The notes beneath the pieces were generated by a model, which ran no database searches, was not told the DNA's origin, and worked only from the letters and a program-made list of their open reading frames with translations. DNA of 64,000 bases, taken from NCBI RefSeq assembly GCF_035910975.1, contig NZ_JAMHWM010000026.1, positions 63,042 through 127,041 of the forward strand, in the 5' to 3' direction. A program made the translations under genes and the position numbers. The stretch comes from Sphingomonas sp. (GTDB lineage: Bacteria > Pseudomonadota > Alphaproteobacteria > Sphingomonadales > Sphingomonadaceae). Below, one piece after another: positions 45,469 through 64,000 of this stretch; position 1 is the first letter of the stretch; every line of letters begins with the position of its first letter.

Positions 45469-46416
45469 ATGGCGGAAGATATCGCGATCTCGGGAGAGCG
45501 GACCGGGCACCGGCTGGCGTCGAACTCCGCGCGCCGCGCGCTCGACATCCTGGGCGATCGCTGGACGCTGATGATCCTCTATCTCGCGTTCACGCGGGTG
45601 CGGCGGTTCGACGAGTTCCAGGCGCGCATCGGCCTGGCACGCAGCCTGCTGACCGACCGCCTGCGGCGGCTGGAGGCGAGCGGGGTGCTGCGTCGCCAGC
45701 GCTATCAGGAACGCCCCCCGCGCGACGAATATCGCCTCACCGAAATGGGCACCGACCTGTTCGGCGCGGCGCTGATGATCATCCGCTGGGAAAAGCGCTG
45801 GTTTCCCGATCCCCAGGTCGGCGCGCACCGCATCCGCCACAATTGTGGGCGCGAATTCACCCCCGAACTGCGCTGCGCCTGCTGTGGCGAGCAGGTCGCC
45901 GCCCGCGACGTGTCGGCGGCCGACGGCCCCGGCGCCGGGCTGGAGCCCCCCGCCCGGCCGCGCGCGCAGCGCCGCTCGACCGTCGAACGCGGCGAACTCG
46001 CGCCTGAGGAAAAGATGCTCGAACGCGCGATCGAGGTGCTCGGCGATCGCTGGACCGCGCAGACGATCGCCTCCGCCTTCACCGGCAAGCGCCGCTTCAA
46101 CGCGCTGCAGGCCGAGCTCGGCGTTGCGCCCAACATCCTGTCGGAACGCCTCGCGCGGCTGGTCGATCTCGGCGTGCTCGACCGCCGCCGCTATCAGGAG
46201 CGGCCCGAGCGGTTCGAATATGCGTTGACGCCCGAGGGGCTCGACCTGTTCCCGCTGATCCTCGAGTTGATCCGCTGGGGCGATCGCTGGCTGGCGGGCA
46301 CGGCGGGGCCGCCGCAGATCATCACCCACCGCCCCTGCGGAAACCGGCTGGAGCCCCGGATCACCTGCGACCAGTGCGGTGAGGCGGTGACGGTGCTGTC
46401 GACCCGTTTCGACTAG
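45469..46416 (+). CDS. Tandem-duplicated HxlR-family winged-helix regulator
   Basis: Two units (LDILGDRWT…RRFDEF…L..RLRRLE; IEVLGDRWT…RRFNAL…LSERLARLV), each followed by H..C…CxxC; ATG 45469. Confidence 0.88.
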   Translation: MAEDIAISGERTGHRLASNSARRALDILGDRWTLMILYLAFTRVRRFDEFQARIGLARSLLTDRLRRLEASGVLRRQRYQERPPRDEYRLTEMGTDLFGAALMIIRWEKRWFPDPQVGAHRIRHNCGREFTPELRCACCGEQVAARDVSAADGPGAGLEPPARPRAQRRSTVERGELAPEEKMLERAIEVLGDRWTAQTIASAFTGKRRFNALQAELGVAPNILSERLARLVDLGVLDRRRYQERPERFEYALTPEGLDLFPLILELIRWGDRWLAGTAGPPQIITHRPCGNRLEPRITCDQCGEAVTVLSTRFD

Positions 46417-46428
46417 GTCCGGCAAGGT

Positions 46429-46842
46429 TCAGCCAGAGAGCGCCGCCAGCCATGCCGGCGCCGAATCGCCGCCGCGCAGCCGCTCCATCCGCCGGGTATC
46501 GATATAGTCGCGCCACGCGGCGATCAGCTCGCCGCGAAACTCGATCACCGCGGCATAGGGCATCGCCACCACGGTGCCGTCGGTGCGGGTATAGGCGTCC
46601 ACGCCTTCCGCAAACAACCGGTCGCCGCTTTCGGCATGGTGCAGGATGCGCCAGCGCGTTTCCGCCATGTCGCCGCGCAGCTGCTCCAGGAAGGCACGCA
46701 CCGCCGCCTTGCCCATCAGCGGTGGAAACGCGCCGACCGCCACGTGCCAGACCACATCGTCGGCCATGCCGGCGAGCGCGCCGTCGATGTCCCCCGCATT
46801 CCACGCCGCGATCACCGCCGCGAAGCGATCGGCGTGGCTCAA
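46429..46842 (-). CDS. NTF2/SnoaL-fold protein, limonene-1,2-epoxide hydrolase-like
   Basis: AWNAGD…DDVVWH…FAEGVD…IAAWRDYID. Confidence 0.75.
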   Translation of the reverse strand: MSHADRFAAVIAAWNAGDIDGALAGMADDVVWHVAVGAFPPLMGKAAVRAFLEQLRGDMAETRWRILHHAESGDRLFAEGVDAYTRTDGTVVAMPYAAVIEFRGELIAAWRDYIDTRRMERLRGGDSAPAWLAALSG

Positions 46843-48533
46843 CCGATCATCTCCAGCACCTGTTCGCGCAGGTGACGGCGCGACACCTTGTTCATCGCGT
46901 TGCGCGGGAGGGCATCGACCGTGACCAGCTGTTCGGGCAGCTTGAACCGCGCTAGTCCCTGCTCCTCCAGCCAGCCGGCGATATCACCCAGCGCCGGGGC
47001 GGCACCATCGACCGGAACCACCGCCGCGCACATCCGCTCGCCCAGCCGCTCGTCAGGCACACCGACCACGGCGGCTTCCCTGACCATCGGATGGCCGGCG
47101 AGCAGGTCGTCGATCTCGGCGGGCGAGATGTTCACGCCGCCGCGCACGATGATGTCCTTGCAGCGCCCGACGAAGCGGTAGAAGCGGGGCGTCTCGCCCT
47201 CACCCGCGATCTCGAACAGGTCACCGGTGCGATAATAGCCCTGCGCGTCGAACGCGTTCGCGGTCGTCCCAGGGTTGTTCCAATATCCGCCGAACGTCGC
47301 CGCACCCTGGAACCGCAGCTCGCCGGGCCGGCCGGGTTCGGTGATGTCCTCCTCGCTGTCGAGATCGACCAGCCGGGTCGAGATCATCGCGTTCGATCGG
47401 CTGTCCGGCCAGTCGATCCCCTCGACGCCCATGCGCGGAAAATAGCGCGCGCGATCGTGATGGTCGGGCACCTGCCGGGCGTCGCTGAACAGCGATGCGC
47501 CCTCGTTCGACCCGTAGATGTTGCACACCTCGATCCCGTGGTCCTTCGCAAACCCCTCGATCATCCACGGGCTGAGCGGCGCCGATCCCGATCCGATCGC
47601 CCGCAGCGACGACAGGTCGCACGCGTCCATCAGCCCTGGCGTCTTGAGCAGCGCGTTGAGGATCGCCGGCGCGGCGATCGTGTAGTTCACCCGTTCGGCG
47701 GCGATCTGCGCCAGATAGACCTTCAGGTCGAACGGGTGGTGCAGCACCAATGTGCCGCGGTGCATCAGCCACGGCGTCACCAGCCCGAACGACCCGATGT
47801 TGACCAGCGGGAAGGGGTTGAGCAGCACCTCGCCCTCGCGGATGTCGGCAGCCTCCGCCACCATCTCGCCGTTGACGATCCAGTGGTTCATGTCGCGCGG
47901 CACGCCCTTCGGCCGCGCCTCGGTGCCCGACGTCCAGAAGATCGTGAACACCTCAGCCGGCCGGATCGGCCGGGCATCGTGATAGGCGGCGGCCTCGACC
48001 GGGTCCGCGCTCGCGATGCGCGCGTCGAAATCGATCGTACCGTCGGGCGCGCCGCCGCCGTGGATCAGGACATGCTCGACCCCCGTCGCCAGCGCCATCG
48101 CGGCGTGATCGTGCCCGGCGAAGCGCGCCAGCGTGACGATTGCCCTGGGCTTCACCGTATCGACGACATAGCCCAGTTCGTGCGCGCGATACGGCATCAC
48201 CACCGGCGAGATGACGACCCCGATCCGCGAACAGGCCAGCGCCAGCACCACCGTCTCGCTGATGTTGGGCAGCTGGTAGGTCAGGACATCGTCCTTCCCA
48301 AGCCCGATGCCGAGCAGCGCGGCGGCGACGCGATCGACTTCCTCGCCCAGTTCGCCCCAGGTGAAGCGCCGCACCGCGCCGCCGTCCAGTTCGGCGCGGT
48401 TCATCGGATCGACCAGCGCCAGCCGTTCGGGCACCTCGCCCCGGTTGCGCTGCATCCAGTCGTCGAGCGTCAGGTCGCCCCACCAGCCCCGGGCGGTGAA
48501 GTCGTCGATCCGCGCCTGCGGGGTCAGTTGCAC
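46839..48533 (-). CDS. Class I adenylate-forming enzyme (acyl/aryl-CoA ligase)
   Basis: WTSGTEARPKG, YGSNEG, YYRTGDL, GRCKDIIVRGG and LPRNAMNK. Confidence 0.9.
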   Translation of the reverse strand: MQLTPQARIDDFTARGWWGDLTLDDWMQRNRGEVPERLALVDPMNRAELDGGAVRRFTWGELGEEVDRVAAALLGIGLGKDDVLTYQLPNISETVVLALACSRIGVVISPVVMPYRAHELGYVVDTVKPRAIVTLARFAGHDHAAMALATGVEHVLIHGGGAPDGTIDFDARIASADPVEAAAYHDARPIRPAEVFTIFWTSGTEARPKGVPRDMNHWIVNGEMVAEAADIREGEVLLNPFPLVNIGSFGLVTPWLMHRGTLVLHHPFDLKVYLAQIAAERVNYTIAAPAILNALLKTPGLMDACDLSSLRAIGSGSAPLSPWMIEGFAKDHGIEVCNIYGSNEGASLFSDARQVPDHHDRARYFPRMGVEGIDWPDSRSNAMISTRLVDLDSEEDITEPGRPGELRFQGAATFGGYWNNPGTTANAFDAQGYYRTGDLFEIAGEGETPRFYRFVGRCKDIIVRGGVNISPAEIDDLLAGHPMVREAAVVGVPDERLGERMCAAVVPVDGAAPALGDIAGWLEEQGLARFKLPEQLVTVDALPRNAMNKVSRRHLREQVLEMIG

Positions 48534-48565
48534 TCTACCTCTCCATCCTCATCAGGTCCCCAACC

Positions 48566-48643
48566 CCGTTCGTGCTGAGCTTGTCGAAGCACCGTCCTTG
48601 TTCGAGAGGACGTGCGGCCCTTCGACAAGCGCGGGCCGAACGG
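48566..48643. repeat. REP/REPIN-like element, family A
   Basis: CCGTTCGTGCTGAGCTTGTCGAAGCAC … GCCCTTCGACAAGCGCGGGCCGAACGG. Confidence 0.85.
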
Positions 48644-48656
48644 GAGAAGGGACGTC

Positions 48657-49454
48657 TCACGCCCGCTTGGGCGGCCACGGTACGAAACCGCTGGTCCGTG
48701 CGATATAGTCGGCATAGCCCGGCTTGGTCTTGCGCATGCGGAATTCCAGCGTCGGCGCGCCCGACCATTTCATCAGAGTCCAGGTCAGCAGCACCGGCCC
48801 CGGCAGCGCAAGCCAGCCGAGCGGGGTTTCCGCACCGATCAGGAACAGCCCCCACCACACACAGGCGTCGCCGAAGTAGTTGGGGTGCCGGGTATAGCGC
48901 CACAGACCCGTCGACAGCACCTGCCCCGCGTTCGCCGGGTTCTTGCGGAAAACGGTCAGCTGCCAGTCGCCGATGCTTTCGAAGATGATGCCGAACACCG
49001 CCAGCGCGGCACCAACGTAGGCAAGCGTGCCCAGCGCGACCGGCTCCGCCTGGATCTGCCCCAGCATCACCGGCAGCGCGACGATGAACTGCAGCGGCGC
49101 CTGGGTGGCGAACACCAGCCAGAACGACGCCCTGGCATAGCCCCAGCCGCGCTTGTCCTGCGCCTTCTCCATCATCCGCACATAGCGCCGGTCGGGGCCG
49201 TGATCGCGCCACCGCCAGAACAGATATCCGCCCAGCCGGATCGCCCAGATCGCGCAGATCACGGTCAGCAGCCAGCGCCGGTCGGTCGCCACCTCCATCT
49301 GCGCGAAGGTCGCGATCGCCAGCACCATCATGCCCAGCGCCCACCAGGCATCCACCATCGTCACGTCGCGGATCGACGCGCAGATCGCCCACATCATCGT
49401 GAAAGCGATGACGACGGTCACCGCGTCGATCGCCAGGATTCTAATGACGTCCAT
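48657..49454 (-). CDS. DUF1295 / steroid 5-alpha-reductase-like membrane protein
   Basis: True start ATG 49454; VDAWWALG, DRRY, ESIGDWQL and GLWRYTRHPNYFGD. Confidence 0.88.
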   Translation of the reverse strand: MDVIRILAIDAVTVVIAFTMMWAICASIRDVTMVDAWWALGMMVLAIATFAQMEVATDRRWLLTVICAIWAIRLGGYLFWRWRDHGPDRRYVRMMEKAQDKRGWGYARASFWLVFATQAPLQFIVALPVMLGQIQAEPVALGTLAYVGAALAVFGIIFESIGDWQLTVFRKNPANAGQVLSTGLWRYTRHPNYFGDACVWWGLFLIGAETPLGWLALPGPVLLTWTLMKWSGAPTLEFRMRKTKPGYADYIARTSGFVPWPPKRA

Positions 49455-49467
49455 ATTCCCTCCCCCG

Positions 49468-49545
49468 GTGCTCCCGCGCAGGCGGGAGCCTAGAGCCACA
49501 CAGGACAGCATTTGCGGCCCTGGGCTCCCGCCTGCGCGGGAGCAC
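49468..49545. repeat. REP/REPIN-like element, family B, intact
   Basis: GTGCTCCCGCGCAGGCGGGAGCCTAG … CTGGGCTCCCGCCTGCGCGGGAGCAC, near-perfect inverted arms. Confidence 0.88.
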
Positions 49546-49558
49546 GGCGGTATGTCGA

Positions 49559-50323
49559 TCAACGCCCCGTGCTGATCGTCTCCATGTCCAGCATCCGTGC
49601 CAGCGCGCGTTCCTGCGCCTTGGGATCACGCGCCTTGTGGGCGCGGACCTCGATAGCCATGCGGTCGGTGTCGATCTCGTCGGTGCCGCGCTTGATCGCC
49701 GACAGGCCGATCTTCGCGATGTCAGCCGGCGTTTCCTTGGCGCCGGCGACGTGCGCGGCCATCCGCGTATCGACCGAACCGACGATCAGCGCCGACACGC
49801 TCGTCCCCTGTTTCGCCAGTTCGGCGCGGATCGATGTGCTCGCCGCGCGCGCCGCGAACTTCGACGGGCTGTATCCGCCCATCGCCGGCACCGCGACGAC
49901 GCCGCCCGATGACAGGATGTTGACGATCGCCCCGCCGCCATTGGCCTTCAGCGCAGGCGCGAAGGCGCGGCACATGCCGAGCAGGCCGAAGTAGTTGACC
50001 TCCATCTCCTCGCGCGCGGCGTCCATCGTCTCGGCGCCGATCAACCGCTGGTTGAGGAACGCGCCGGCATTGTTGACGACGATGGTGACATCGGTCGCCG
50101 CCTTCGCGGCCGCGGCGATCTGGTCGGGCCTGGCGACGTCGAGCGTCAACGCGACGACCTTCCCCTGTCCCTCCTCGACCAGATGCTGCGCGTTCGCCGG
50201 ATCGCGGCTGCCGACATAGACCTTCGCCGCACCACCCGCGATCAGCGCGCGGACGAACGCCTCGCCGATCCCGCGATTGCCCCCGGTGACGATCGCCACC
50301 GATCCCTCGATAGGCGTCGCCAC
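49559..50323 (-). CDS. Short-chain dehydrogenase/reductase
   Basis: TGGNRGIG, NNAG and YSPSK. Confidence 0.92.
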   Translation of the reverse strand: MATPIEGSVAIVTGGNRGIGEAFVRALIAGGAAKVYVGSRDPANAQHLVEEGQGKVVALTLDVARPDQIAAAAKAATDVTIVVNNAGAFLNQRLIGAETMDAAREEMEVNYFGLLGMCRAFAPALKANGGGAIVNILSSGGVVAVPAMGGYSPSKFAARAASTSIRAELAKQGTSVSALIVGSVDTRMAAHVAGAKETPADIAKIGLSAIKRGTDEIDTDRMAIEVRAHKARDPKAQERALARMLDMETISTGR

Positions 50324-50324
50324 G

Positions 50325-50858
50325 TCAGGCCGCCCGCGAACTGTACAGCACGTCGGCCGGATGCTTGGCGCCGCGCACCAGCTCGGTGCCGTCGGGGAAC
50401 ATCATCCCCCGGCCCCAGCTTTCGGCGAACGGCATCTCGTGGTTCCATTCCCACGCCAGCCGGCGGTGCGCGATCTTCCACTGGCCGTCGCGGCGCTCGA
50501 ACCGGTCGATCGCGCGGGCCAGCGTCAGCGTGTCGAATTTCTCGCCGCCCTTCTCCTTCATCCGCGCAAAGGCCAGGATGTAATGCTCGGCGTGGGCGAC
50601 GTCGCCGTCCAGTTCGATGACGATATTGGTCGCCAGGTGGTTCATGATCCCGCCCCTGGGCAGCATCTTCGCCATCAACGCCACATAGTCGCTGGCGGGT
50701 CCGTTGTAGACGCCGCCGTGATCCTCGATCGCGTCGGGGTGATAGGCATCGGCGATCAGCGCGATCTCCGCCCGGTCGGCGCCGCGCAGGTACAGGTTGA
50801 TGACGTCGGTGATCGCCTGCTTGTCCAGCAGCGCCTGGATTTCGGGCGGAAGGCTCAT
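50325..50858 (-). CDS. SnoaL_4/NTF2-like protein (LinA/BaiE dehydratase-like)
   Basis: ITDVINLYLRGADR, YHPDAIEDHG, NHLATN and DRFERRDGQWKIAHRR; ATG 50858. Confidence 0.8.
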   Translation of the reverse strand: MSLPPEIQALLDKQAITDVINLYLRGADRAEIALIADAYHPDAIEDHGGVYNGPASDYVALMAKMLPRGGIMNHLATNIVIELDGDVAHAEHYILAFARMKEKGGEKFDTLTLARAIDRFERRDGQWKIAHRRLAWEWNHEMPFAESWGRGMMFPDGTELVRGAKHPADVLYSSRAA

Positions 50859-50869
50859 CGATTTTCCTC

Positions 50870-52651: not shown

Positions 52652-52653
52652 CG

Positions 52654-54368: not shown

Positions 54369-54400
54369 CGGGCCTCTCCGATTCGTGCTGACGCAAAGTC

Positions 54401-56198: not shown

Positions 56199-56216
56199 CG
56201 CCTGTCTCTCCAGTTA

Positions 56217-56233
56217 AGTCGTTTTATGCAAGT
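56217..56233 (-). promoter_or_regulatory. Cluster operator motif, copy 2
   Basis: Minus strand ACTTGCATAAAACGACT, downstream of TTGACA (56263-56258). Confidence 0.7.
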
Positions 56234-56363
56234 GAAGGTGCCGCAGCGGACCGGCCGTGTCAACGCCGACCCAGTCCGGCCTGTCACCGACCACCCGTCG
56301 CACCTAATCCGGCGGGTTGCGGACGCTCTTGACAAGGATCAACTCCGGGCAGATGTTCGTGCC

Positions 56364-56380
56364 GCTTGCTTAAAGCGACT
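56364..56380 (+). promoter_or_regulatory. Cluster operator motif, copy 3
   Basis: GCTTGCTTAAAGCGACT, downstream of TTGACA (56329-56334). Confidence 0.7.
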
Positions 56381-56427
56381 GAGTTCGACCGCCCGATACG
56401 GGGCGGCGACGACCAGGAGAGGATCTG

Positions 56428-58653
56428 ATGGCCGCACGTCCGTTCACCGCCGTTTCGTGTCTCGCGATCGCCGCCGCCTTCGCCGCGCCCGCCGCCGCCC
56501 AGTCGGCTCCACCGCCGGCGCAGCAGGAGGCTGACGGTCCGCAGGTCGCCGACGTCGTCGTCACCGCGCGCAAGCGCGAGGAAAGCCTGCAGGACGTGCC
56601 GATCGCGGTGACCGCCTACTCGGGCGACGCGATCCGCGACGCGCAGATCGTCGATCTTTCCGCCATTGCCGGCCGCACCCCCAGCTTCACCTTCCAGAAA
56701 CAGGGGTCGATCGAGCAGGAGGCATTCATCCGCGGCGTCGGCACCGTCCGCCTGACCAGCGCCACCGCCGACCCGTCCGTCGGCCTGTTCATCAACGAGG
56801 TCTATATCGGCCGCCGCGGTGCCGCGACGCCCCCGATATTCGATCTCGAGCGGGTCGAGGTGCTTCGCGGTCCGCAGGGCACGATCTTCGGCAAGAACGT
56901 GGTCGGCGGCGCGGTCAGCCTCATCACCGGCGCGCCGCGCTTCGAATTCGGCGGCGCGGCCTATATCGCCGCCGGCAATTACGGCACCGTCCAGTCGGAA
57001 GCCCATGTGACGGGCGCGCTCAGCGACACCGTCGCCGCGCGCATCGCCTTCGCCACCGACCGCCACGACGGCTACAGCCGCAACATCGTCAACGGCCAGG
57101 AACTGGAGGACACCAACGGCTATGCCGGACGCCTGTCCTTCCTGGTCAACGCCTCCGATCGCCTGACGCTCAACTTCGTCGGCGACGTCAGCCACGATTC
57201 GGGCGGCGGCCAGGCCCGCCACGCAGTCGATGACCCGACCCGCGCGGGCGTCGGAGCCATCGCGGCGGCGAACCTGTCCAGCGATCCGCGCACCACCTTC
57301 ACACCGTATGAGCAGTTCCAGCGCCGCACGACCTACGGCTTCTCCGCGCGGGCCGACTATGACTTCGGCGGCGCGACGCTCACCTATCTCGGCGCGCTGC
57401 GCGGCGGCGATTCGGGACAGCGCTTCAGCCAGGCCGGCGCCGGCGCACCGCCGTCGCTGACCGATTCGGTGCTCACCCAGTTCGAGAAATACACCGGCGT
57501 CACGCAGGAACTGCGCATCGCCTCCGATCCCGCCAAGCAGCTCCGCTGGCTGCTCGGCCTCTACTATCTGCGCGAGGAAACCGATCGCAGCTCGGAAAAC
57601 GCCGCGCGTTCGGCCCTGCCCGGCGGCCCCGGCGGCACCCGCGACAGCCTCGACGGCGTGAACAACTTCACCCAGAACGGCGTGGCATCCAACTATGCCG
57701 CGTTCGGTGAAGTCGAATATGAATTCATGCCCGGGCTGACCGCGTCGCTCGGCGCGCGCTACACCATCGACAACAAGGTGACGGACGCGTCCGCCACGAT
57801 CATCAGCTTCGGCATGCCCGGCGACATCCTGTCACCCGCGCCGCTGCGCACACCGTACAACATCTCGGTCGAGAACACCTGGCGCGAGCTGACCCCGCGC
57901 GCCGCGCTCGAATGGAAGGCGTCGGACAATGTCCTCGTCTACGCATCCGCGGCGAAGGGCTTCAAGGGCGGCGGCTGGCAGGCTGCGACCCCCGATCCGG
58001 TCACCGCGGCGCGGCCGTTCAACCCGGAAACCGCGTGGAACTATGAAATCGGCATCAAGAGCGACCTGTTCGATCGCCGTGTCCGCCTGAACCTCGCGGC
58101 CTTCCGCCTCGACTTCAACGACCTCCAGGTCGAACAGCTCGACGACGTGCTGCTGACCACCGTCGTAACCAACGCCGCCAGCGCGAAGATCCAGGGTATC
58201 GAGGGCGAGGTCTCGCTCGCCGTTACCGAGGGCTTCACCCTGTCCGGCTCCGGCTCGATCCTCGACGCCAAGTACAAGCTCTATGTCGATCCCCGCCGCA
58301 ACATCACCTACACCGGCAACTCGCTACCGCGCACGCCAGACTATCAATTCTCGGTCGCGGCGGACCTGAAGCAGCCCATCGGCGGCGATCTGGAGCTGAT
58401 GGCGAACGCCAGCTACACCTATCAGGACACATTCTTCTACGGCCCCGACAACACCAATTTCGAGCCTGGCTACGGCCTGCTCGACGCGCGGCTCGGCATC
58501 GGCAAAATCGGCGGCCGCTGGGCGGTGTCGCTTTGGGGCAAGAACCTGACCAACCGTTTGTACCGTACCAGCGTGATCCCGTTCCTGGGCGACGAATCCT
58601 CGCTCTACGGCGCCCCACGCACCTACGGCGTCCGTCTCTCGTCGAAATTCTGA
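56428..58653 (+). CDS. TonB-dependent receptor
   Basis: DVVVTARKREESLQDVP, LERVEVLRGPQGTIFGKN; C-terminal YGAPRTYGVRLSSKF. Confidence 0.95.
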   Translation: MAARPFTAVSCLAIAAAFAAPAAAQSAPPPAQQEADGPQVADVVVTARKREESLQDVPIAVTAYSGDAIRDAQIVDLSAIAGRTPSFTFQKQGSIEQEAFIRGVGTVRLTSATADPSVGLFINEVYIGRRGAATPPIFDLERVEVLRGPQGTIFGKNVVGGAVSLITGAPRFEFGGAAYIAAGNYGTVQSEAHVTGALSDTVAARIAFATDRHDGYSRNIVNGQELEDTNGYAGRLSFLVNASDRLTLNFVGDVSHDSGGGQARHAVDDPTRAGVGAIAAANLSSDPRTTFTPYEQFQRRTTYGFSARADYDFGGATLTYLGALRGGDSGQRFSQAGAGAPPSLTDSVLTQFEKYTGVTQELRIASDPAKQLRWLLGLYYLREETDRSSENAARSALPGGPGGTRDSLDGVNNFTQNGVASNYAAFGEVEYEFMPGLTASLGARYTIDNKVTDASATIISFGMPGDILSPAPLRTPYNISVENTWRELTPRAALEWKASDNVLVYASAAKGFKGGGWQAATPDPVTAARPFNPETAWNYEIGIKSDLFDRRVRLNLAAFRLDFNDLQVEQLDDVLLTTVVTNAASAKIQGIEGEVSLAVTEGFTLSGSGSILDAKYKLYVDPRRNITYTGNSLPRTPDYQFSVAADLKQPIGGDLELMANASYTYQDTFFYGPDNTNFEPGYGLLDARLGIGKIGGRWAVSLWGKNLTNRLYRTSVIPFLGDESSLYGAPRTYGVRLSSKF

Positions 58654-58704
58654 GGCCAAAGGGGGCGTGTGACTGGCCGGTGCGGGAGATCGCTCCGGCC
58701 AGTC

Positions 58705-58721
58705 ACTTGCATTACGAGACT
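58705..58721 (+). promoter_or_regulatory. Cluster operator motif, copy 4
   Basis: ACTTGCATTACGAGACT, about 45 nt upstream of the dioxygenase start. Confidence 0.65.
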
Positions 58722-58765
58722 ATCTGGTCTAGGCCAGTAATCAGGCGCAATCCGAAAGACATGTC

Positions 58766-60238
58766 GTGATGAAGGTCGAACGTCTCCCCCCCGTCGTCAC
58801 CAGCCTGAAACCCGGCAACCATCCCTATCTCAACGGCGCCTGGACCCCGCTGCACGAGGAGGTGGACGCCGAGGATCTGGAGGTGATCGCCGGCGCGATT
58901 CCGGCCGACATCGACGGCGTCTACATCCGCAACACCGAAAACCAGGTGCACCAGCCGCTGGGGCGCCATCACCCCTTCGACGGCGACGCGATGATCCACC
59001 AGATCGCGTTCCGGGACGGCAAGGCCAGCTACCGCAACCGCTTCGTCCGCACCCGCTGTTTCGAGGCGGAGCAGGAGGCCGGCCGCTCGCTATGGGGTGG
59101 TCTCGCCGATCCGCCGGGCACCTCGGTCCGTCCCGGCTACGGCGCGCATGGCAGCCTCAAGGACAATGCCTCGACCGACGTCGTCGTCCATGCCGGCAAG
59201 CTCTATTCGACCTTCTACCAGTGCGGCGAGGCCTATACGCTCGACCCGCTGACGCTCGACGATCTCGGCATCGCGCCATGGGCGCCGATCGACGGCGTGT
59301 CGGCACATTGCAAGGTGGACGAGGCGACCGGCGAGCTGCTGTTCTTCAACTATTCGAAGCACGCGCCGTACATGCATTACGGCGTGGTCGATGCCTCGGG
59401 CAAGCGCACCACCTACATGCCGATCCCGCTGCCGGGCCCGCGGTTACCGCACGACATGGCGTTTTCGGAACGCTTCTCGATCCTCAACGACCTGCCGGTG
59501 TTCTGGGATCCGGGCCTGCTGGAGCGCGGCGTCCACGCGGTGCGCTTCTTCCGCGACATTCCCTCGCGTTTCGCCATCGTACCGCGCCACGGCGGCGACG
59601 TCCGCTGGTTCGATGCCGCGCCCTGCTACATCCTCCATTTCCTCAACGCCTATGAGGATGGCGACGAGCTGGTGCTCGACGGCTATTTCCAGGAAGACCC
59701 CACCCCGCCGCCGCTCCACGGCTCGGTCGAGGGCCATGAACACATGATGGCCTATCTCGACATGCACAGTTTCAAGAGCCGCCTGCATCGCTGGCGCTTC
59801 GACCTGAAGACCGGCGCGACGCGCGAGGAGCGGCTGTACGACGGCATCGTCGAATTCGGCATGATGAACGCGCGCTACGCCGGAAAGCCTTATCGCTACG
59901 CCTATTCGGTCACGTCGAAGCCCGGCTGGTTCCTGTTCGACGGCTTCGTCAAGCACGACCTGGAAACGGGCGAGGCGCAGACGATCAAGCTGGAGCCCGG
60001 CCGCTACGCCAGCGAAGCCCCATTCGCCCCGCGGGTCAACGCCTCGTCGGAGGATGACGGCTATCTCGTCAGCTTCGTGATCGACGAAAATCGCGGCACG
60101 TCCGAATGCATATTGATCGACTGCAAGGATTTCGCCGCCGGTCCGGTGTGCCGAATCGCACTGCCGCACAAGATCTCCAGCGGCACGCACTCGGTCTGGG
60201 CCGATCGCGCCTTCATCGAGGGCGGGCGCGCCGCCTGA
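58766..60238 (+). CDS. Carotenoid cleavage oxygenase (RPE65/CCO/LSD) family dioxygenase
   Basis: HPFDGDAMIH, RNRFVRT, four Fe-ligand His (SAHCKVD, LPHDM, ILHFLN, GTHSVW) and SEAPFAPR…EDDGYL. Confidence 0.93.
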   Translation: MMKVERLPPVVTSLKPGNHPYLNGAWTPLHEEVDAEDLEVIAGAIPADIDGVYIRNTENQVHQPLGRHHPFDGDAMIHQIAFRDGKASYRNRFVRTRCFEAEQEAGRSLWGGLADPPGTSVRPGYGAHGSLKDNASTDVVVHAGKLYSTFYQCGEAYTLDPLTLDDLGIAPWAPIDGVSAHCKVDEATGELLFFNYSKHAPYMHYGVVDASGKRTTYMPIPLPGPRLPHDMAFSERFSILNDLPVFWDPGLLERGVHAVRFFRDIPSRFAIVPRHGGDVRWFDAAPCYILHFLNAYEDGDELVLDGYFQEDPTPPPLHGSVEGHEHMMAYLDMHSFKSRLHRWRFDLKTGATREERLYDGIVEFGMMNARYAGKPYRYAYSVTSKPGWFLFDGFVKHDLETGEAQTIKLEPGRYASEAPFAPRVNASSEDDGYLVSFVIDENRGTSECILIDCKDFAAGPVCRIALPHKISSGTHSVWADRAFIEGGRAA

Positions 60239-60239
60239 C

Positions 60240-61289
60240 ATGGCCGTGCGGGTGATCCAGTGGGCGACGGGCGCGATGGGACGGACGTCGCTCCGGCGGA
60301 TCATCGACCATCCCGACCTCAAACTCGTTGGCGTCTACGTCTATTCCGCCGACAAGGCCGGGCGCGATGCCGGCGATCTGGCGAAGCGTCCGGCGACCGG
60401 CGTGATCGCCACCGACGATATCGAAGCGATCCTCGCCCTCGACGCCGATGTGGTGATGCATATGCCGCGCATCACCCTGCCCTATGATGCGATGAACGCC
60501 GATGTCGCGCGGCTGCTCGCCTCGGGCAAGAACGTCATCTCGACCGCCGGCTTCCACTATCCGCCCGCCCATGCTGCGCATTATGCTGCGCCGCTCGCCG
60601 CAGCATGCGTGGCCGGCGACAGCACGCTCGCCGGGCTGGGCGTCAATCCCGGCACGATCGTCGAGCGGCTGACGCTCGCCGCGACCGGGCTGTGCGCGGA
60701 CCTCGCACATGTCGATATCCGCGAGACGGTCGATGCCTCGTCGATGGCGTCGAAGGAATTCGTGTTCGGCCTGATGGGGTTCGGGGCCGATCCCGCGACC
60801 GACGACATCACCGACGGCCCGCTTGCCGCGCTCTATACCGCGCTGTTCTCCGAAGTCCTGCACCTCGCCGCTGCCGGCCTCGACGATCCGGTCGTGGGGA
60901 TCGCGCCACGCCACGAAATCACCGCCGCGCCGCGCGATATCAACCTGCCCGCCGGGATCATCCCGGAAGGCACCGTCGCCGCGACGCGCTGGCGCTGGAC
61001 GGCGACGCTGGCGAGCGGCATCTCTCTGACGCTATCGATCCTGTGGACCGCCGATCCCGCGCTTCATCCCGAGGACGGGCGCGGCCACTGGACGATCGAC
61101 ATCACCGGCCGGCCCAACATCCGCCTGACCGTCGCGATCGACGAAGGCGATCCGGCGGCAGCCCCCGCCCGCGCGCTGACCGACGCCACCGTCGCGGTCG
61201 CCATCGCCGGCATCCCGGCGGTGGTTGCCGCCCCGCCCGGCTTCTTCGCCTATCCCGCACCGCCCGCCTTCCGCCGGCGGCTGGGGTGA
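60240..61289 (+). CDS. NAD(P)-dependent oxidoreductase, DapB/2,4-diaminopentanoate dehydrogenase-like
   Basis: VIQWATGAMG Rossmann variant, KAGRDAG, LLASGKNVIST, GVNPG and IPAVVAAPPG. Confidence 0.78.
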   Translation: MAVRVIQWATGAMGRTSLRRIIDHPDLKLVGVYVYSADKAGRDAGDLAKRPATGVIATDDIEAILALDADVVMHMPRITLPYDAMNADVARLLASGKNVISTAGFHYPPAHAAHYAAPLAAACVAGDSTLAGLGVNPGTIVERLTLAATGLCADLAHVDIRETVDASSMASKEFVFGLMGFGADPATDDITDGPLAALYTALFSEVLHLAAAGLDDPVVGIAPRHEITAAPRDINLPAGIIPEGTVAATRWRWTATLASGISLTLSILWTADPALHPEDGRGHWTIDITGRPNIRLTVAIDEGDPAAAPARALTDATVAVAIAGIPAVVAAPPGFFAYPAPPAFRRRLG

Positions 61290-61461
61290 CGGCAGGGGTT
61301 CAGAAGTTGGATTTCGACTGGCAGCGTCGTCGTCCGATGGCATCTGAATCTTTCCCGCTCCCCGGCGCGCGGCGCGCCTTGCCCACGCCGATAGCCGGCG
61401 GGGCGAAGCCGGATCGATCGCGCGCGTTGCCCCTACCCTCGTCAACTTCGGACCTGCGATC

Positions 61462-62610
61462 ATGACCGTCTACATCCGCGACGCGCTGCGCACCCCGCGC
61501 GGAAAGGCCCGGCCCGACGGTGGGCTTGCGCAGCATATGCCGCAGGACCTCGTCGCGGCGCTGATCGACGCGCTGGAGGATCGCGCGCCCGGCGCCCGCG
61601 CCACCGACAGCCTGATGCTCGGCTGCGTCGGCCAGGTCGGCGCGCAGGGCGGCAACATCGCGGTGGTCTCGAAGCTCGCCGCCGGCCTGCCGGATGGCGC
61701 CGCCGCGCAGACGATCAACGCCTATTGCGCCAGCGGCCTCGTCGCGGTCGGCCAGGCGGCCGCGCTGATAGAGAGCGGCACGATCGACACCGCGCTGGCC
61801 GGGGGTGTGGAGATGATGTCGCACGTCGGCTTCATGGCCGACAAGGCTGCCTTCTACACCGACCGTAATCTGCCCCGCGCCGCGCAGTTCATCCCCGTAG
61901 CGGTCGCCGCCGATCGCCTTGCGACGCGCGAGGGCATCGATCGCGCGGCGATGGATCGCGCGGCCGAGATCTCGCAAGCCCGCGCGCTTGCCGCCGAAGC
62001 CGATCCGGCGCTGACGAAATCGCGCATTGTAGTGGGCGACCTTTCCCGAGAGGAAAACCCGCGCGCGGGCATGACGCTCGACAGGCTTGCCGCATTGCCC
62101 GCCGCCTTCGCCGATCTCGCCACCGCCTATACCGACGTACTGGGCGACGAGGCGATCACCTATACGCACAGCATCGCCCACGCCCCGCCGATGTGCGACG
62201 GCGCCGGCCTTGCCGCGCTCACCCGCGATCCCGCCGGCGCCCGCGCGCGCATCATCGCCTATGCCGAAGTCGGCGGGGACGCATCCGCCTCGCTCACCGC
62301 CGGCTTCGCCGCGATGGACCGGGTGCTGGGCCGCGCCAGCCTGACCCTCGCCGATATCGACCGTATCGAGTTCATGGAGGCGTTCGCTGTCGTCATCGCG
62401 AAGTTCCTGCGCGACCGCGATGTCGACCCCGCGCGCGTCAACATATCGGGCGGCCATCTCGCCAAGGGGCATCCGATGGGCGCGACCGGGGCGATCCTGC
62501 TATCCACCCTGCTCGACACGCTCGACGCCGCCGAAGGGCGTTACGGCATGGTCGTCGTCACCGGCGCGTCGGGAGTAGGCGCGGCGATGATCGTCGAGCG
62601 CTGCGCATGA
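61462..62610 (+). CDS. Thiolase-family protein with atypical active site
   Basis: DALRTPRGK, NAYCASG, DGA and GHPMGATG; the C-terminal CxGGG motif is replaced by TGASG. Confidence 0.85.
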   Translation: MTVYIRDALRTPRGKARPDGGLAQHMPQDLVAALIDALEDRAPGARATDSLMLGCVGQVGAQGGNIAVVSKLAAGLPDGAAAQTINAYCASGLVAVGQAAALIESGTIDTALAGGVEMMSHVGFMADKAAFYTDRNLPRAAQFIPVAVAADRLATREGIDRAAMDRAAEISQARALAAEADPALTKSRIVVGDLSREENPRAGMTLDRLAALPAAFADLATAYTDVLGDEAITYTHSIAHAPPMCDGAGLAALTRDPAGARARIIAYAEVGGDASASLTAGFAAMDRVLGRASLTLADIDRIEFMEAFAVVIAKFLRDRDVDPARVNISGGHLAKGHPMGATGAILLSTLLDTLDAAEGRYGMVVVTGASGVGAAMIVERCA

Positions 62611-63509
62611 TACCGTCGCTGCGTATGCCGGTCGTCGCCGCGCCGATGTTCCTGGTGACCGGACCCGACCTGGTCATCGCGGCGAGCAACGCCGGCATCC
62701 TCGGGGCCTTCCCGACCAGCAACTGCCGGACCGCGGAGGAGCTCGACAGCTGGATGGCGCGTATCGCCGGCGCGGTCGGCGATCGGCCGTGGGCGGCGAA
62801 CCTCATCACCCATTCGACCAACCCGCGCCTTGCCGATGATCTCGCGCTGGTCGCCAAATATCGTCCGCCGCTCGTCATCACCGCACTCGGCAGCCCCGTG
62901 CCGGTAATCGATACGGTCCATGCCTATGGCGGCACCGTGCTGGCCGACGTCGTCGATCTGAAGCTTGCCCGCAAGGCGCTGGCCGCCGGCGCCGACGGCC
63001 TCGCCTGCGTCAGCCACGGCGCCGGCGGCCACACCGGCAGCCTTTCGCCGCTCGCCTTCGTGTCGGCGGTACGGCAGTTCCATGCCGGCCCGCTCGCGGT
63101 GGGCGGCGGGATCGCCGACGGCGCCGGTGTCGCCGCCGCGATCGCGGCGGGCGCCGACCTCGTCTACATGGGCACCCGTTTCATCGCCGCGACCGAGAGC
63201 CTTGCCGCGCCGGGCTACAAGGCGATGCTGGCCGAGGCGACGATCGCGGACATCGTCGTCAGCGCCGCCCCCACCGGCACGCCCGCGTCGTGGCTGCGCC
63301 CCAGCCTCGCCGCCGCCGGCTACGCCGACGACGCCCCAGCCGGTGCCCGCAACTATGGCGCGCCCGACGAAGCCGTGAAACGCTGGCGCGACATCTGGGC
63401 CGCGGGGCAGGGCGTCCACGCCACCACCGCCGAACAGCCGGTCGCCGAGATCGTCGCCGAGCTCGAAACGGGCTTCCGCGCAGCCCAGGCCCGGCTGGCG
63501 CGTTTCTAG
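62607..63509 (+). CDS. Nitronate monooxygenase / FabK-like FMN oxidoreductase
   Basis: ATG 62607 (ATGA overlap); VVAAPMFLV, GAGGHTG, GGGIADG, VYMGTRFIAATES and DIWAAGQGV. Confidence 0.88.
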   Translation: MIPSLRMPVVAAPMFLVTGPDLVIAASNAGILGAFPTSNCRTAEELDSWMARIAGAVGDRPWAANLITHSTNPRLADDLALVAKYRPPLVITALGSPVPVIDTVHAYGGTVLADVVDLKLARKALAAGADGLACVSHGAGGHTGSLSPLAFVSAVRQFHAGPLAVGGGIADGAGVAAAIAAGADLVYMGTRFIAATESLAAPGYKAMLAEATIADIVVSAAPTGTPASWLRPSLAAAGYADDAPAGARNYGAPDEAVKRWRDIWAAGQGVHATTAEQPVAEIVAELETGFRAAQARLARF

Positions 63510-63916: not shown

Positions 63917-63944
63917 GGCGATGTGGGGAGTGCAGCGGCCCCGC

Positions 63945-63998: not shown

Positions 63999-64000
63999 CG

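Follow-up and report, generated by a model that had tools for sequence, protein, structure and literature searches.

A conserved 16-gene cluster around a four-histidine CCO-family oxygenase in Sphingomonas sp., probably involved in degradation of an imported unsaturated acid

The 16-gene set described here is a real functional unit, kept together in many freshwater and soil bacteria. Probably, it is one co-regulated catabolic unit of four or more transcription units sharing a directional 16-bp element, and it probably degrades an imported unsaturated acid. The likeliest substrate class, an apocarotenoid-type, methyl-branched isoprenoid polyene acid, possibly with a ring epoxide, is suggested at somewhat less than even confidence, and the explanation as a whole, that is, the co-regulated catabolic unit together with the mechanism proposed below and an apocarotenoid-type substrate, is likewise put forward tentatively. 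Among the NCBIfam models and in the literature, nothing matching the gene set was found, be it a described pathway, an equivalog model, or a paper, in agreement with the first-pass annotation, which knew of no characterised pathway of this composition. Every specific equivalog match of the cluster enzymes is below its NCBIfam cut-off, PDB identities reach about 30% at best, and no enzyme is close to a characterised one.

The window, that is, the whole analysed stretch of 64,000 nucleotides of contig NZ_JAMHWM010000026.1 from Sphingomonas sp., originates from an activated-sludge metagenome. GC3 frame analysis and Pfam scans confirm the tightly packed set of about 18 kb with the domain content listed in the first-pass annotation, namely, 16 genes at 45469-63509 (Table 1). 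The boundaries are right, since the cluster is flanked by housekeeping genes, namely, lnt, metK, gdhA, and trmB before it and DUF1489 after it. The claimed frequent translational coupling is seen in four four-base start/stop overlaps (46839-46842, 50870-50873, 55785-55788, 62607-62610) and three one- or two-base intergenic gaps (50323/50325, 52651/52654, 60238/60240). The imperfect inverted repeat between the AMP1 and DUF1295 genes possibly acts as a terminator or represents a REP-like element.

Table 1. Genes, repeats and motif copies of the cluster.
Feature	Position	Strand	Support or location
Tandem HxlR regulator	45469-46416	+	Pfam HxlR 142 bits, two stretches; ORF open from 45376
NTF2_A, LEH-family	46429-46842	-	Pfam SnoaL_2 67.8 bits; LEH 36 bits vs cut-off 24
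AMP1, acyl-CoA ligase 1, medium-chain/alicyclic type	46839-48533	-	Pfam AMP-binding + AMP-binding_C
Long imperfect inverted repeat, AMP1/DUF1295 intergenic	48556-48653	.	Two 39-nt arms, 74% complementary
DUF1295 membrane protein	48657-49454	-	Pfam DUF1295 230 bits
SDR	49559-50323	-	Pfam adh_short 119 bits; NCBIfam PRK08264.1-4 311 bits vs cut-off 279
NTF2_B, SnoaL_4 protein	50325-50873	-	Pfam SnoaL_4 83 bits
AMP2, acyl-CoA ligase 2, Fcs-like	50870-52651	-	NCBIfam PRK12582 637 bits vs cut-off 777; start refined
NTF2_C, LEH/SnoaL_2	52654-53082	-	Pfam LEH 44.5 bits; AAGGAG ahead of ATG at 53082
SCP2-type thiolase	53157-54368	-	Pfam Thiolase_C_1; NCBIfam PRK06289 620 bits vs cut-off 375
Regulon motif copy	54401-54416	+	33 bp upstream of SCP2-type thiolase start
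MFS transporter, anion:cation symporter type	54418-55788	-	Pfam MFS_1 156 bits; best NCBIfam match TIGR00893
NTF2_D, LEH/SnoaL_2	55785-56198	-	PDB LEH 5aif 54 bits, E 1e-13
Regulon motif, exact copy	56217-56232	+	19 bp upstream of NTF2_D
Regulon motif, exact copy	56365-56380	-	48 bp upstream of TBDR gene
TonB-dependent outer-membrane receptor (TBDR)	56428-58653	+	Pfam Plug + beta-barrel
Hairpin, 16-nt stem, TBDR/CCO intergenic	58669-58706	.	Inverted repeat
Regulon motif copy	58706-58721	-	45 bp upstream of CCO gene
RPE65/CCO, four-His oxygenase	58766-60238	+	Pfam RPE65 418 bits
DapB_N-like NAD(P) oxidoreductase	60240-61289	+	Pfam DapB_N 30 bits
Thiolase	61462-62610	+	Pfam Thiolase_N + Thiolase_C
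NMO/FabK-like FMN enzyme	62607-63509	+	Pfam NMO; ATGA overlap with thiolase gene

The CCO orthogroup has members in 568 or more species genomes, with identities of 69-89%. Among the 51 related CCO-centred loci with full flanks (the larger set comprises 80 loci), 41 (80%) have a DUF1295 and/or SCP2-type thiolase gene beside the CCO gene, and 19 (37%) retain at least eight of the 15 partner families; in the reverse direction, CCO is found near three out of three independently chosen DUF1295 orthologues. The first-pass annotation would have been refuted by lack of co-conservation, and this refutation fails because the genes form one co-conserved unit. Conserved loci occur in Sphingomonadales, Caulobacterales, Rhizomicrobium, Niveispirillum, and some Betaproteobacteria, and their invariant common core consists of CCO, DUF1295 and the SCP2-type thiolase. 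Sphingomonas rustica, Parasphingorhabdus flavimaris, and Caulobacter henricii are examples of carriers available in culture. In Caulobacter and other genomes this core occurs in a minimal form free of transporters, with or without HxlR; the TBDR-fed system named in the first-pass annotation exists in a subset of genomes only, the receptor not being part of the invariant core. NTF2_D is usually divergent from the CCO or TBDR gene, and the DapB-like gene, retained in 14 of the 80 loci, is among the less conserved members. Versions of the cluster in Brevundimonas add genes for acyl-CoA dehydrogenase, thioesterase, aldehyde dehydrogenase, and further ligases and thiolases.

A directional 16-bp motif, CTTGCnTnAnnnGACT, precedes four transcription units in the window. 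Its four copies, compared to 0.36 expected, are all intergenic within the cluster and identically oriented relative to the downstream gene. Upstream of CCO the motif was found in 27 of the 80 loci, across orders, while about 0.004 would be expected per locus; the distance to the CCO start is 36-99 bp (at most 60 bp in 24 out of 27), and a single orientation is kept in 25 out of 27. In other loci, it also occurs upstream of DUF1295, TBDR/NTF2_D, and DapB/AMP1. The sharing of the motif suggests that the cluster genes are co-regulated, and we infer that the element is a candidate target of the adjacent tandem HxlR-type regulator. The latter has two winged-helix domains, each followed by a His/Cys3 motif invariant in 28 orthologues (H155, C157, C167, C170 and H318, C321, C331, C334, numbered by the 346-aa ORF starting at 45376).

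The CCO protein has all four iron-binding histidines of the four-His site claimed for it (H181, H229, H291, H475). Plant CCD1 is its nearest relative of solved structure both by sequence (30% identity, PDB search) and by fold (AF2 model, Foldseek). Two of the three second-sphere glutamates are kept, and the first aligns with the invariant Gln152. Scores on the NCBIfam models are far below the cut-offs, being 229 bits vs 675 for apo-carotenoid 13,14-dioxygenase, and 219 and 185 bits vs 800 and 650 for the two LSD equivalogs. All characterised enzymes that cleave stilbenes or styrenes bind the 4-hydroxyl by the Tyr101/Lys134 pair (PMC8191317); in the alignment of the CCO orthogroup, these positions are the invariant Leu113/Tyr151. 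Because of this replacement, CCO is not regarded as a lignostilbene dioxygenase, and a lignin stilbenoid, one of the substrates considered in the first-pass annotation, is disfavoured. The orthogroup itself is uncharacterised and, by family, predicted to be a double-bond-cleaving oxygenase.

As to the multiple NTF2/LEH-fold enzymes of the first-pass annotation, NTF2_A, NTF2_C, and NTF2_D are genuine members of the limonene-epoxide-hydrolase family by sequence, a profile built from the three matching the solved LEH 5aif (PDB) with 91.8 bits (E 3e-25). The three proteins retain Asp101 and the WR(D/E)Y motif of the LEH catalytic set but not Tyr53/Asn55, and one of the three retains Arg99; NTF2_D has Arg99, Asp101, and Glu in the position of Asp132. 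With the catalytic set partly lost, epoxide hydrolysis by these proteins is only plausible. NTF2_B likely belongs to the dehydratase/LinA-like branch, with weak PDB matches to Rv3472 and LinA. No diarylpropane-lyase-like protein was seen among the PDB matches listed for the NTF2 proteins (the best 60 of 114 for the profile), and the PDB set may hold no LdpA-type entry.

Further enzymes were assigned by family. The best NCBIfam matches of AMP1 are PRK06187 (293 bits) and cyclohexanecarboxylate-CoA ligase (286 bits), both under the cut-offs. The model of the DUF1295 protein (AF2, pLDDT 91.5) has delta14-sterol reductase 4quv as the top Foldseek match, followed by SRD5A2, PbSRD5A, and ICMT, which points to a sterol/steroid C=C-reductase fold. 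The SCP2-type thiolase, closest in PDB to the trypanosomatid SCP2-thiolase 4bi9, has the full catalytic set (Cys nucleophile, HDCF and GHP motifs); the thiolase at 61462-62610 is devoid of the C-terminal acid/base cysteine, its sequence ending in ...VVVTGASGVGAAM. The DapB_N-like protein (NCBIfam Ord 86 bits vs cut-off 400, weak PDB matches to AmDH and DapB entries) can be placed in the amine-dehydrogenase/DapB superfamily, and the NMO/FabK-like flavoenzyme, closest in PDB to FabK 5gvj (105 bits), is a probable enoyl-thioester reductase. No equivalog model reaches its cut-off on the TBDR. The MFS transporter is of the anion:cation symporter type and therefore suggests a moderately sized carboxylate, and not a bulky neutral lipid (e.g., a C40 xanthophyll); the first-pass annotation had inferred a bulky lipid.

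The gene content agrees with import and CoA-dependent breakdown around a C=C-cleaving oxygenase, and in this sense the earlier interpretation is partly supported. We propose a mechanism of five steps, deduced from protein family for steps 1 and 3-5, and from residue patterns for step 2. (1) The TBDR and the anion-type MFS would carry a carboxylated compound with conjugated C=C bonds to the cytoplasm. (2) There, the four-His oxygenase would split a C=C bond to yield carbonyl products, and the LEH-family NTF2 protein paired with CCO may prepare the substrate or process the product by epoxide opening, hydration/dehydration, or a double-bond shift. (3) The DUF1295 protein and the FabK-like flavoenzyme would saturate the leftover conjugated double bonds of the fragments. 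(4) The acid fragments would be activated by the two CoA ligases, the Fcs-like one suiting 2-enoic acids, and the other resembling ligases of alicyclic and medium-chain acids. (5) Finally, NTF2-type hydratases, the SDR, and the two thiolases would shorten the chain.

The explanation is favoured by what is established for related enzymes. The classical substrate of SCP2-type thiolases is 2-methyl-branched 3-ketoacyl-CoA, and an SCPx thiolase with enoyl reductases is the hallmark of beta-oxidation of branched isoprenoid acids. The substrate of LEH is a methyl-cyclohexane epoxide, resembling 5,6-epoxy-ionone rings. Counted against the explanation are, besides the low PDB identities and equivalog scores, the lack of aldehyde dehydrogenase, crotonase, and acyl-CoA dehydrogenase genes in the cluster of the window, and the minimal three-gene core of Caulobacter, hard to interpret as a complete pathway; the automatic label of AMP2 orthologues and the NTF2/CCO pairing of lignin-dimer pathways, both given below, leave some room for an aromatic substrate.

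It is unlikely that the substrate is instead a plant aromatic alkene acid, e.g., a dimer originating from lignin or hydroxycinnamates (diferulate, lignan, phenylcoumaran acids), with NTF2 enzymes generating or processing the alkene cleaved by CCO, as in the LdpA/PcfL and LSD pathways of Sphingobium SYK-6. Six lignin-dimer routes are described in which a CCO-family dioxygenase receives its substrate from an NTF2-family enzyme, and SYK-6 imports DDVA by a TBDR and MFS pair (PMC12997858); AMP2 orthologues bear the automatic JGI label "feruloyl-CoA synthase," a dicarboxylate would fit two CoA ligases, and the carriers belong to taxa known to degrade aromatics. However, the replaced 4-hydroxyl-binding pair, the low LSD scores, and the PDB matches listed for the NTF2 proteins speak against it, and genes for O-demethylase, vanillin/vanillate conversion, or ring cleavage do not recur in the 80 loci.

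Other conjugated or epoxidised lipids, such as algal or cutin oxylipins or epoxy fatty acids, carboxylic acids of the aryl-polyene or another polyene type, or beta-amino polyene acids (e.g., microcystin Adda), are improbable substrates. They would be in line with the three LEH-family proteins, with the CoA ligases, thiolases, and enoyl reductases, with carriers characteristic of lakes, sludge, and communities associated with algae, and with the DapB-like protein of the amine-dehydrogenase/2,4-diaminopentanoate-dehydrogenase superfamily, encoded directly upstream of a thiolase gene; the DapB-like gene is less conserved, however, and mlr and lipoxygenase genes do not recur near the loci. To our knowledge, cleavage by CCO-family enzymes is limited to conjugated alkenes of the carotenoid or stilbene type, and we know of none acting on isolated fatty-acid double bonds.

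Even less probably, the core is a stress or turnover module and not a nutrient pathway, an electrophile-sensing HxlR regulon that clears oxidised carotenoids or membrane lipids of the cell itself and detoxifies the unsaturated aldehydes so formed. Regulators of the HxlR family usually respond to aldehydes, quinones, or oxidants, and the invariant His/Cys3 motifs, the transporter-free cores, and DUF1295 genes reportedly mentioned in work on the singlet-oxygen response would fit. At the same time, full versions hold the TBDR and MFS importer inside the motif-controlled unit, two CoA ligases and two thiolases indicate carbon assimilation, and some carriers, e.g., Caulobacter vibrioides, presumably make no carotenoids. 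Chance juxtaposition of unrelated metabolic genes, each family being common in sphingomonad genomes, is hardly conceivable and is refuted by co-conservation across orders despite rearrangement, the reverse synteny, and the directional motif common to four units.

The apocarotenoid-type catabolic cluster proposed here can be compared with four known systems. With the lignin-dimer stilbene pathways of SYK-6 and Novosphingobium aromaticivorans (LdpA/PcfL and LSD; DdvT/DdvK import) it shares the pairing of an NTF2-superfamily protein with a CCO-family dioxygenase, SDRs, acid import by TBDR and MFS, and sphingomonad hosts; it differs in the CCO residues and LSD scores given above, in LEH-family instead of diarylpropane-lyase-type NTF2 proteins (among the PDB matches listed), in the additional two CoA ligases, two thiolases, DUF1295 and FabK-like enzyme, and in the lack of aromatic funnelling genes.

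Carotenoid and apocarotenoid oxygenases (plant CCD1; NACOX1, SaCCO, MtCCO; Synechocystis ACO) have the same fold and four-His iron site, and the second-sphere motifs EF(G/P) and SE(A/P)xF are conserved; the nearest solved structure is that of Osmanthus CCD1, and the LSD Tyr/Lys positions are Ile/Ser in plant CCD1. Nevertheless, identity is low (24% to ACO), the 13,14-dioxygenase score is below the cut-off, Gln152 replaces the first second-sphere Glu, and we know of none of these enzymes inside a CoA-dependent catabolic operon.

In Rhodococcus erythropolis DCL14, limonene is degraded by way of LimA (limonene-1,2-epoxide hydrolase), a diol dehydrogenase, a CoA ligase, and beta-oxidation. Like the cluster, this route combines a protein of the LEH family, a dehydrogenase of the SDR type, and a CoA ligase with thiolytic breakdown, its substrate being a methyl-branched alicyclic terpenoid. 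In contrast, the cluster, whose oxygenase is CCO, has no monooxygenase or Baeyer-Villiger enzyme and keeps the LEH catalytic set only in part.

Finally, compared to the breakdown of branched and alicyclic acyl-CoA (SCPx, pristanic acid; FadD3, IpdC, IpdF of steroid rings C/D), the cluster is devoid of Ksh, Kst, Hsa, and IpdAB genes; the likenesses, family-level only and under equivalog cut-offs, are the SCP2-type thiolase, the NMO-family enoyl-CoA reductase, a FadD3/cyclohexanecarboxylate-like ligase, and an SDR.

Since the G+C content of the window is 64-72%, the raw ORF lists were crowded with shadow frames; genes were called by third-position GC content (GC3), which picks one frame per stretch, and Pfam confirmed every picked frame. 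According to this analysis, the cluster comprises 16 genes: regulatory and import genes (a tandem HxlR regulator, an MFS transporter, and a TonB-dependent receptor, TBDR), four genes for NTF2-fold proteins (LEH/SnoaL_2-type NTF2_A, NTF2_C, and NTF2_D, and SnoaL_4-type NTF2_B), CoA enzymes (two AMP-binding CoA ligases, AMP1 and AMP2, an SCP2-type thiolase, and a second thiolase), and redox genes (an RPE65/carotenoid-cleavage-oxygenase-family oxygenase, CCO; DUF1295; an SDR; a DapB_N-like oxidoreductase; and an NMO-family flavoenzyme). The starts of AMP2, NTF2_C, and NMO were refined from orthologue comparison and start-codon context. The genes are densely packed, with 4-base overlaps in four gene pairs and 1-2 base spacing in three more. 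The left flank contains only housekeeping genes (lnt, metK, gdhA, trmB), and a DUF1489 gene follows on the right. Thus, the first-pass annotation, which had delimited the cluster and listed its genes by reading the DNA, was correct in coordinates, inventory, and the observation of the cluster as such.

A scan of positions 44000-64000 against Rfam yielded neither a riboswitch nor any other family, the promoter scan found no sigma-70 consensus, and terminator-like sites were not enriched. An imperfect inverted repeat occupies the sole sizeable gap of the minus-strand gene row, at AMP1/DUF1295. The window was detected only in DNA runs from activated sludge and drinking water, and a search with a Caulobacter locus gave no usable RNA runs.

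Elsewhere in the window, the flavin amine-oxidase-family gene was considered as a marker of a carotenoid biosynthesis cluster and rejected, its neighbours being housekeeping genes; neither this gene nor the one for a fatty-acid-hydroxylase-family protein has an apparent link to the cluster. A second import module is also unrelated to it. Three further TonB-dependent receptors lie within positions 601-15345, with two large ORFs among them and a two-component pair after them.

Positions of genes and other features in the window
Feature	Position	Strand	Remark
TonB-dependent receptor	601-3891		STN signalling domain
Large ORF	4016-5761		No Pfam match
Large ORF	5881-7149		No Pfam match
TonB-dependent receptor	7488-10463		
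TonB-dependent receptor	10679-13027		
OmpR-type response regulator and histidine kinase	13190-15345		
Flavin amine-oxidase-family protein	21585-23249		554 aa
TetR regulator	25105-25764	-	Second import module (25105-29622); divergent from its TBDR
TonB-dependent receptor	25854-28193	+	Second import module
MFS transporter	28297-29622	+	Second import module
Fatty-acid-hydroxylase-family protein	38139-39257		372 aa; adjoins AsmA-family gene
Cluster	45469-63509		
Tandem HxlR regulator	45469-46416		
Imperfect inverted repeat	48556-48653		39-nt arms, 74% complementary
AMP2	Start 52651		Refined start
NTF2_C	Start 53082		Refined start; AAGGAG in front
Divergent intergenic region	56199-56427		
Hairpin	58669-58706		16-nt stem, 94% complementary
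CCO	58766-60238	+	
NMO	Start 62607		Refined start; ATGA overlap with stop of preceding thiolase
Motif copy	33 bp upstream of SCP2-thiolase gene		
Motif copy	19 bp upstream of NTF2_D		
Motif copy	48 bp upstream of TBDR gene		
Motif copy	45 bp upstream of CCO gene		

More than 5000 relatives of CCO are found at E <= 1e-30, and a scan of one genome per species confirmed at least 568; the best 120 (72-89% identity) bear a single name in every source, "carotenoid oxygenase family protein." In order to assess synteny, 80 CCO loci with 10-kb flanks from Sphingomonas, Sphingopyxis, Parasphingorhabdus, Glacieibacterium, Caulobacter, Phenylobacterium, Brevundimonas, Algimonas, Rhizomicrobium, Niveispirillum, Hydrogenophaga, and Acidovorax were searched by tblastn with the proteins of the window as queries, and partners were counted in the 51 loci of at least 19 kb. 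DUF1295 or the SCP2-thiolase is present at >=40% identity in 41 of these, at least eight of the 15 partner families in 19, and no partner family in nine. Gene order is collinear in close relatives (loci L001, L002, L004); the cluster is complete but reshuffled in Parasphingorhabdus, Algimonas, Glacieibacterium, S. colocasiae, and Hydrogenophaga, and Caulobacter and several Phenylobacterium genomes retain only CCO, DUF1295, and the SCP2-thiolase, often with the tandem HxlR gene. Brevundimonas versions gain an acyl-CoA dehydrogenase, a PaaI-type thioesterase, an aldehyde dehydrogenase, and more ligase and thiolase genes. Unsupervised ORF clustering of the 80 loci added one NTF2 paralogue, a second TBDR type, and an extra SDR, with no other recurrent family beyond these and the known partners. 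In the reverse test, starting from three DUF1295 orthologues picked solely for long contigs, CCO was within 6 kb in all three and the whole cluster was present in two. Thus, both the CCO loci and the reverse test demonstrate co-conservation, the absence of which the first-pass annotation had named as refuting its interpretation.

Some loci deserve separate mention. Phenylobacterium-type loci L018, L011, L017, L021, L024, and L073 carry two NTF2_D-type genes and an extra 128-aa NTF2 paralogue, hence the NTF2 repertoire grows with the cluster; L018 also has two tandem-HxlR genes. Metagenome contig L081 contains a compact operon in the order abhydrolase, two SDRs, NTF2 protein, SCP2-thiolase, an apparent SnoaL_2-DUF1295 fusion (10001-11176, protein P0189), and CCO; the fusion may be an assembly frameshift, as the contig has split genes.

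The CCO protein belongs to PF03055 (Pfam RPE65, 417.8 bits, cut-off 27), and its AF2 model (pLDDT 81.6) has the seven-bladed propeller fold of this family, matching CCD1, LsdA, and ACO. The fold search ranks Osmanthus CCD1 first (30% identity), followed by LsdA and PbLSD (27%), NOV1 (25%), and ACO (24%), all at TM ~0.8; among solved structures, the sequence search favours a plant carotenoid 9,10-dioxygenase (214 bits) over LsdA (172), VP14 (162), and ACO (145). In the alignment, the four His ligands H181, H229, H291, and H475 correspond to His167, His218, His282, and His472 of LsdA, and the second-sphere residues E363 and E417 are conserved. The first second-sphere Glu (Glu135 in LsdA, Glu also in plant CCD1) aligns with Gln152 throughout the orthogroup, which may be a real change in the tuning of the iron site or a local alignment shift; E155, three residues downstream, could stand in for it.

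In enzymes of the lignostilbene dioxygenase (LSD) type, Tyr101 and Lys134 form hydrogen bonds with the 4-hydroxyl of stilbenoid substrates (PMC8191317). According to both HMMER and MAFFT alignments, these positions are occupied by Leu113 and Tyr151 in CCO. Leu113, Tyr151, and Gln152 are invariant in nine orthologues aligned with LsdA; among 35 orthologues, Tyr151 and Gln152 are invariant and Leu113 is at least 90% conserved. All NCBIfam equivalogs score far under their cut-offs. Hence, a lignostilbene or stilbenoid dioxygenase (LSD, NOV1, CAO1, or Iem/ADO type) is rejected given the absent Tyr/Lys pair and low equivalog scores (NF053778, 219 bits vs 800; NF053780, 185 vs 650), as is an apo-carotenoid 13,14-dioxygenase (NF052295, 229 vs 675). 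Since the fold and His ligands are present, and the Tyr/Lys pair and equivalog scores are not, CCO is best placed as a superfamily member outside the LSD type and the characterised clades represented in NCBIfam and PDB. Two further bacterial CCOs with known activity are SaCCO (WP_011541991), acting on apo-8'-carotenal, and Cso2 of Caulobacter segnis (WP_013079514.1), acting on 4-vinylguaiacol and isoeugenol. The Cso2 accession is not among the 15 listed of 162 members of the 90% cluster of the C. segnis CC215 orthologue. SeNCED, with 59% similarity to Cso2, has LSD-like His numbering, and this type acts on 4-hydroxy aromatics, which suggests that Cso2 may be a different, LSD-like paralogue; the residues of the CCO orthogroup, as far as the alignment tells, do not suit such aromatics. 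No signal peptide is seen in the CCO sequence, and therefore the substrate must enter the cytoplasm.

Both thiolases had been described as atypical, a fair term for each. One is of the SCP2 type (NF004936, 620 bits, cut-off 375), with the Cys nucleophile (EAACASG), the HDCF loop (VHDCFS), and the His motif (GCGHPVGATG); its nearest relatives are trypanosomatid SCP2-thiolases (closest PDB entry 4bi9, 148 bits). The second retains the N-terminal Cys89 (YCASG) and His348 (KGHPMGATG), with TGASGVG in place of the C-terminal CxGGG, so that the acid/base Cys378 is absent; it falls below the TIGR01930 cut-off (227.6 bits vs 240.55). DUF1295 belongs to the Steroid_dh clan (Pfam, 230 bits). Foldseek matches its AF2 model (pLDDT 91.5) best with delta14-sterol reductase 4quv (probability 1.0, TMq 0.51), as well as with steroid 5-alpha-reductases 7bw1 and 7c83 (TMq 0.49-0.57) and the methyltransferase ICMT. 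Its invariant motif RHPNYFGD presumably resembles the sterol-reductase cofactor motif, and the model makes a C=C reductase likelier than a methyltransferase. For the NMO protein, the closest relatives are enoyl reductases of the FabK family (PDB 5gvj, 105 bits), a family-level likeness only, the FabK enoyl-ACP reductase equivalog being rejected (TIGR03151, 111.9 bits vs 453), and the DapB-like protein shows weak kinship to DapB and the amine dehydrogenases. AMP1 is similar to ligases of the medium-chain, cyclohexanecarboxylate, and FadD3 types; AMP2 matches PRK12582, and its orthologues are auto-labelled "feruloyl-CoA synthase" by JGI. The MFS transporter is of the anion:cation symporter type.

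NTF2_A, NTF2_C, and NTF2_D belong to the LEH family PF07858 (36, 44.5, and 39.9 bits, cut-off 24), and their joint profile matches solved LEH 5aif (91.8 bits) and also epoxide-opening MonB cyclases. The catalytic Asp101 of LEH is invariant in all three; Asp132 is Asp in NTF2_A and Glu in NTF2_C and NTF2_D, and Arg99 is retained in NTF2_D only, being Gly in the other two. The C-terminal motif WR(D/E)Y is retained. The water-positioning Tyr53/Asn55 are replaced in NTF2_D, the sole protein aligned with R. erythropolis LEH, and the corresponding stretch reads W-H-V in NTF2_A and W-N-N in NTF2_C. These residues make it plausible that an epoxide, alcohol, or enol undergoes acid/base chemistry. Thus, the initial assignment of multiple epoxide-hydrolase-fold enzymes holds at the family level for these three, while hydrolysis is unproven, the catalytic set being partly kept. 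NTF2_B is of the SnoaL_4 family, not LEH, with weak similarity to LinA and Rv3472. NTF2_D is the usual divergent neighbour of CCO or of the TBDR-CCO pair.

A directional 16-bp motif precedes four transcription units. The divergent intergenic region (see the table) contains two exact, mutually inverted copies of AGTCGYTTTAWGCAAG; with up to three mismatches allowed, the whole 64-kb window has four matches vs 0.36 expected, a number reached in none of 100 shuffles, and all four are intergenic and lie within the cluster. Read toward its downstream gene, every copy is CTTGCnTnAnnnGACT. The one-mismatch search in the 80 loci identified 61 sites (about 12 in shuffled loci). The motif occurs at most 150 bp upstream of the CCO start in 27 of the 80 loci (about 0.004 expected per locus), in the same orientation in 25 of these 27, at distances of 36-99 bp, not exceeding 60 bp in 24. 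It persists at CCO genes without any cluster neighbour, e.g., in C. segnis (locus L040), and is also found in front of DUF1295, TBDR/NTF2_D, and DapB/AMP1. Positions left free in the search pattern are informative as well, extending the motif to roughly TnAGTCTnKTTAYGCAAGTnA. A hairpin directly 3' of the TBDR gene abuts the motif copy of CCO, which suggests separate transcripts for the two genes or attenuation at this site.

The regulator has two HxlR winged-helix stretches (Pfam, 142 bits in total), an arrangement retained in 27 loci, each followed by H-x-C-(8-9 residues)-C-x-x-C, invariant in 28 orthologues; these His/Cys3 motifs are possible metal- or redox-sensing sites, two per chain. We know of no description of such a protein. 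It is the obvious candidate reader of the motif, and a fused pseudo-dimer would fit an asymmetric site; alternatively, the motif could be part of the promoter.

The conserved unit joins import across the outer and inner membranes with a cytoplasmic oxygenase that cleaves C=C bonds, reductases of the enoate/enone type, and enzymes for CoA activation and thiolysis. It is probably co-regulated, and we are largely confident that it represents a CCO-initiated CoA-dependent catabolic regulon. As we infer the order of steps and the substrate, import would be followed by C=C cleavage in the cytoplasm, enoate/enone-type reduction, CoA activation, and thiolysis. The organic-anion MFS transporter and two CoA ligases point to a carboxylate, and most versions lack an acyl-CoA dehydrogenase, which agrees with substrates supplied in 2-enoyl form. 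The SCP2-type thiolase and the two enoyl/enone reductases make up a set classically used on methyl-branched isoprenoid acids. Fragments with an ionone ring, 5,6-epoxides among them, would suit the likeness of AMP1 to alicyclic-acid ligases and the LEH-family proteins, and the plant carotenoid dioxygenase nearest to CCO cleaves carotenoids at the 9,10 bond. Taking all this into account, we favour an apocarotenoid-type acid as the substrate, tentatively and at somewhat less than even chances.

The main rival substrate would be an aromatic alkene acid derived from lignin or from hydroxycinnamates, given that the combination of NTF2 proteins, CCO, and TBDR/MFS is known for lignin-derived aromatics (PMC12997858); however, the Tyr/Lys pair is missing, the cluster has no aromatic funnelling genes, and its NTF2 proteins show no similarity to LdpA-type enzymes among the PDB matches listed, which makes this substrate unlikely. 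Slightly less likely still is another unsaturated or epoxidised lipid. The least probable of these is that the transporter-less core serves in stress or turnover. The first-pass interpretation is partly supported: the unit and its novelty stand, the absent Tyr/Lys pair disfavours the stilbenoid option, and neither the epoxide part nor the bulky-lipid part is proven.

Plants, algae, and cyanobacteria produce carotenoids and carotenoid cleavage products on a very large scale. To our knowledge, lignin stilbenes excepted, no bacterial pathway carries these or other CCO substrates to central metabolism. For carotenoid-type breakdown, the cluster is a concrete, widespread candidate with culturable carriers (e.g., Sphingomonas rustica HF-S3, S. 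colocasiae JCM 31229, Parasphingorhabdus flavimaris SW-151, and Caulobacter henricii). Its core of three genes is clear, a regulator is likely, and its defined motif is directly usable as a reporter for substrate screening. It would assign functions to DUF1295, a large uncharacterised CCO clade, and several LEH-family proteins; were the substrate aromatic, lignin-dimer routes would gain a CCO without canonical phenol-binding residues. A bolder proposal, which we consider rather doubtful, sees in the cluster the first bacterial regulon dedicated to the scavenging and mineralisation of carotenoid-derived or other polyene acids, spread over hundreds of lake, soil, and sludge Alphaproteobacteria. 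Its CCO would represent a new clade in which the second sphere of the iron is altered (Gln152), working with partners from the LEH family and a membrane enzyme of sterol-reductase fold; its switch would be a tandem HxlR sensor of a kind so far undescribed, which has two His/Cys3 sites and would read an asymmetric 16-bp operator.

We regard the cluster as one that serves the catabolism of an unsaturated natural product. The first-pass annotation knew of no characterised pathway with these genes, and no description of this gene set was found in NCBIfam, PDB, or the searchable literature, including that on abscisic acid and apocarotenoid catabolism. In its workings and logic, the cluster follows sphingomonad catabolic clusters already known; its novel elements are a constant triad of CCO, DUF1295, and the SCP2-thiolase, several partners from the LEH family, a tandem HxlR regulator together with its motif, and, in comparison with the characterised enzymes in NCBIfam and PDB, apparently the CCO clade.
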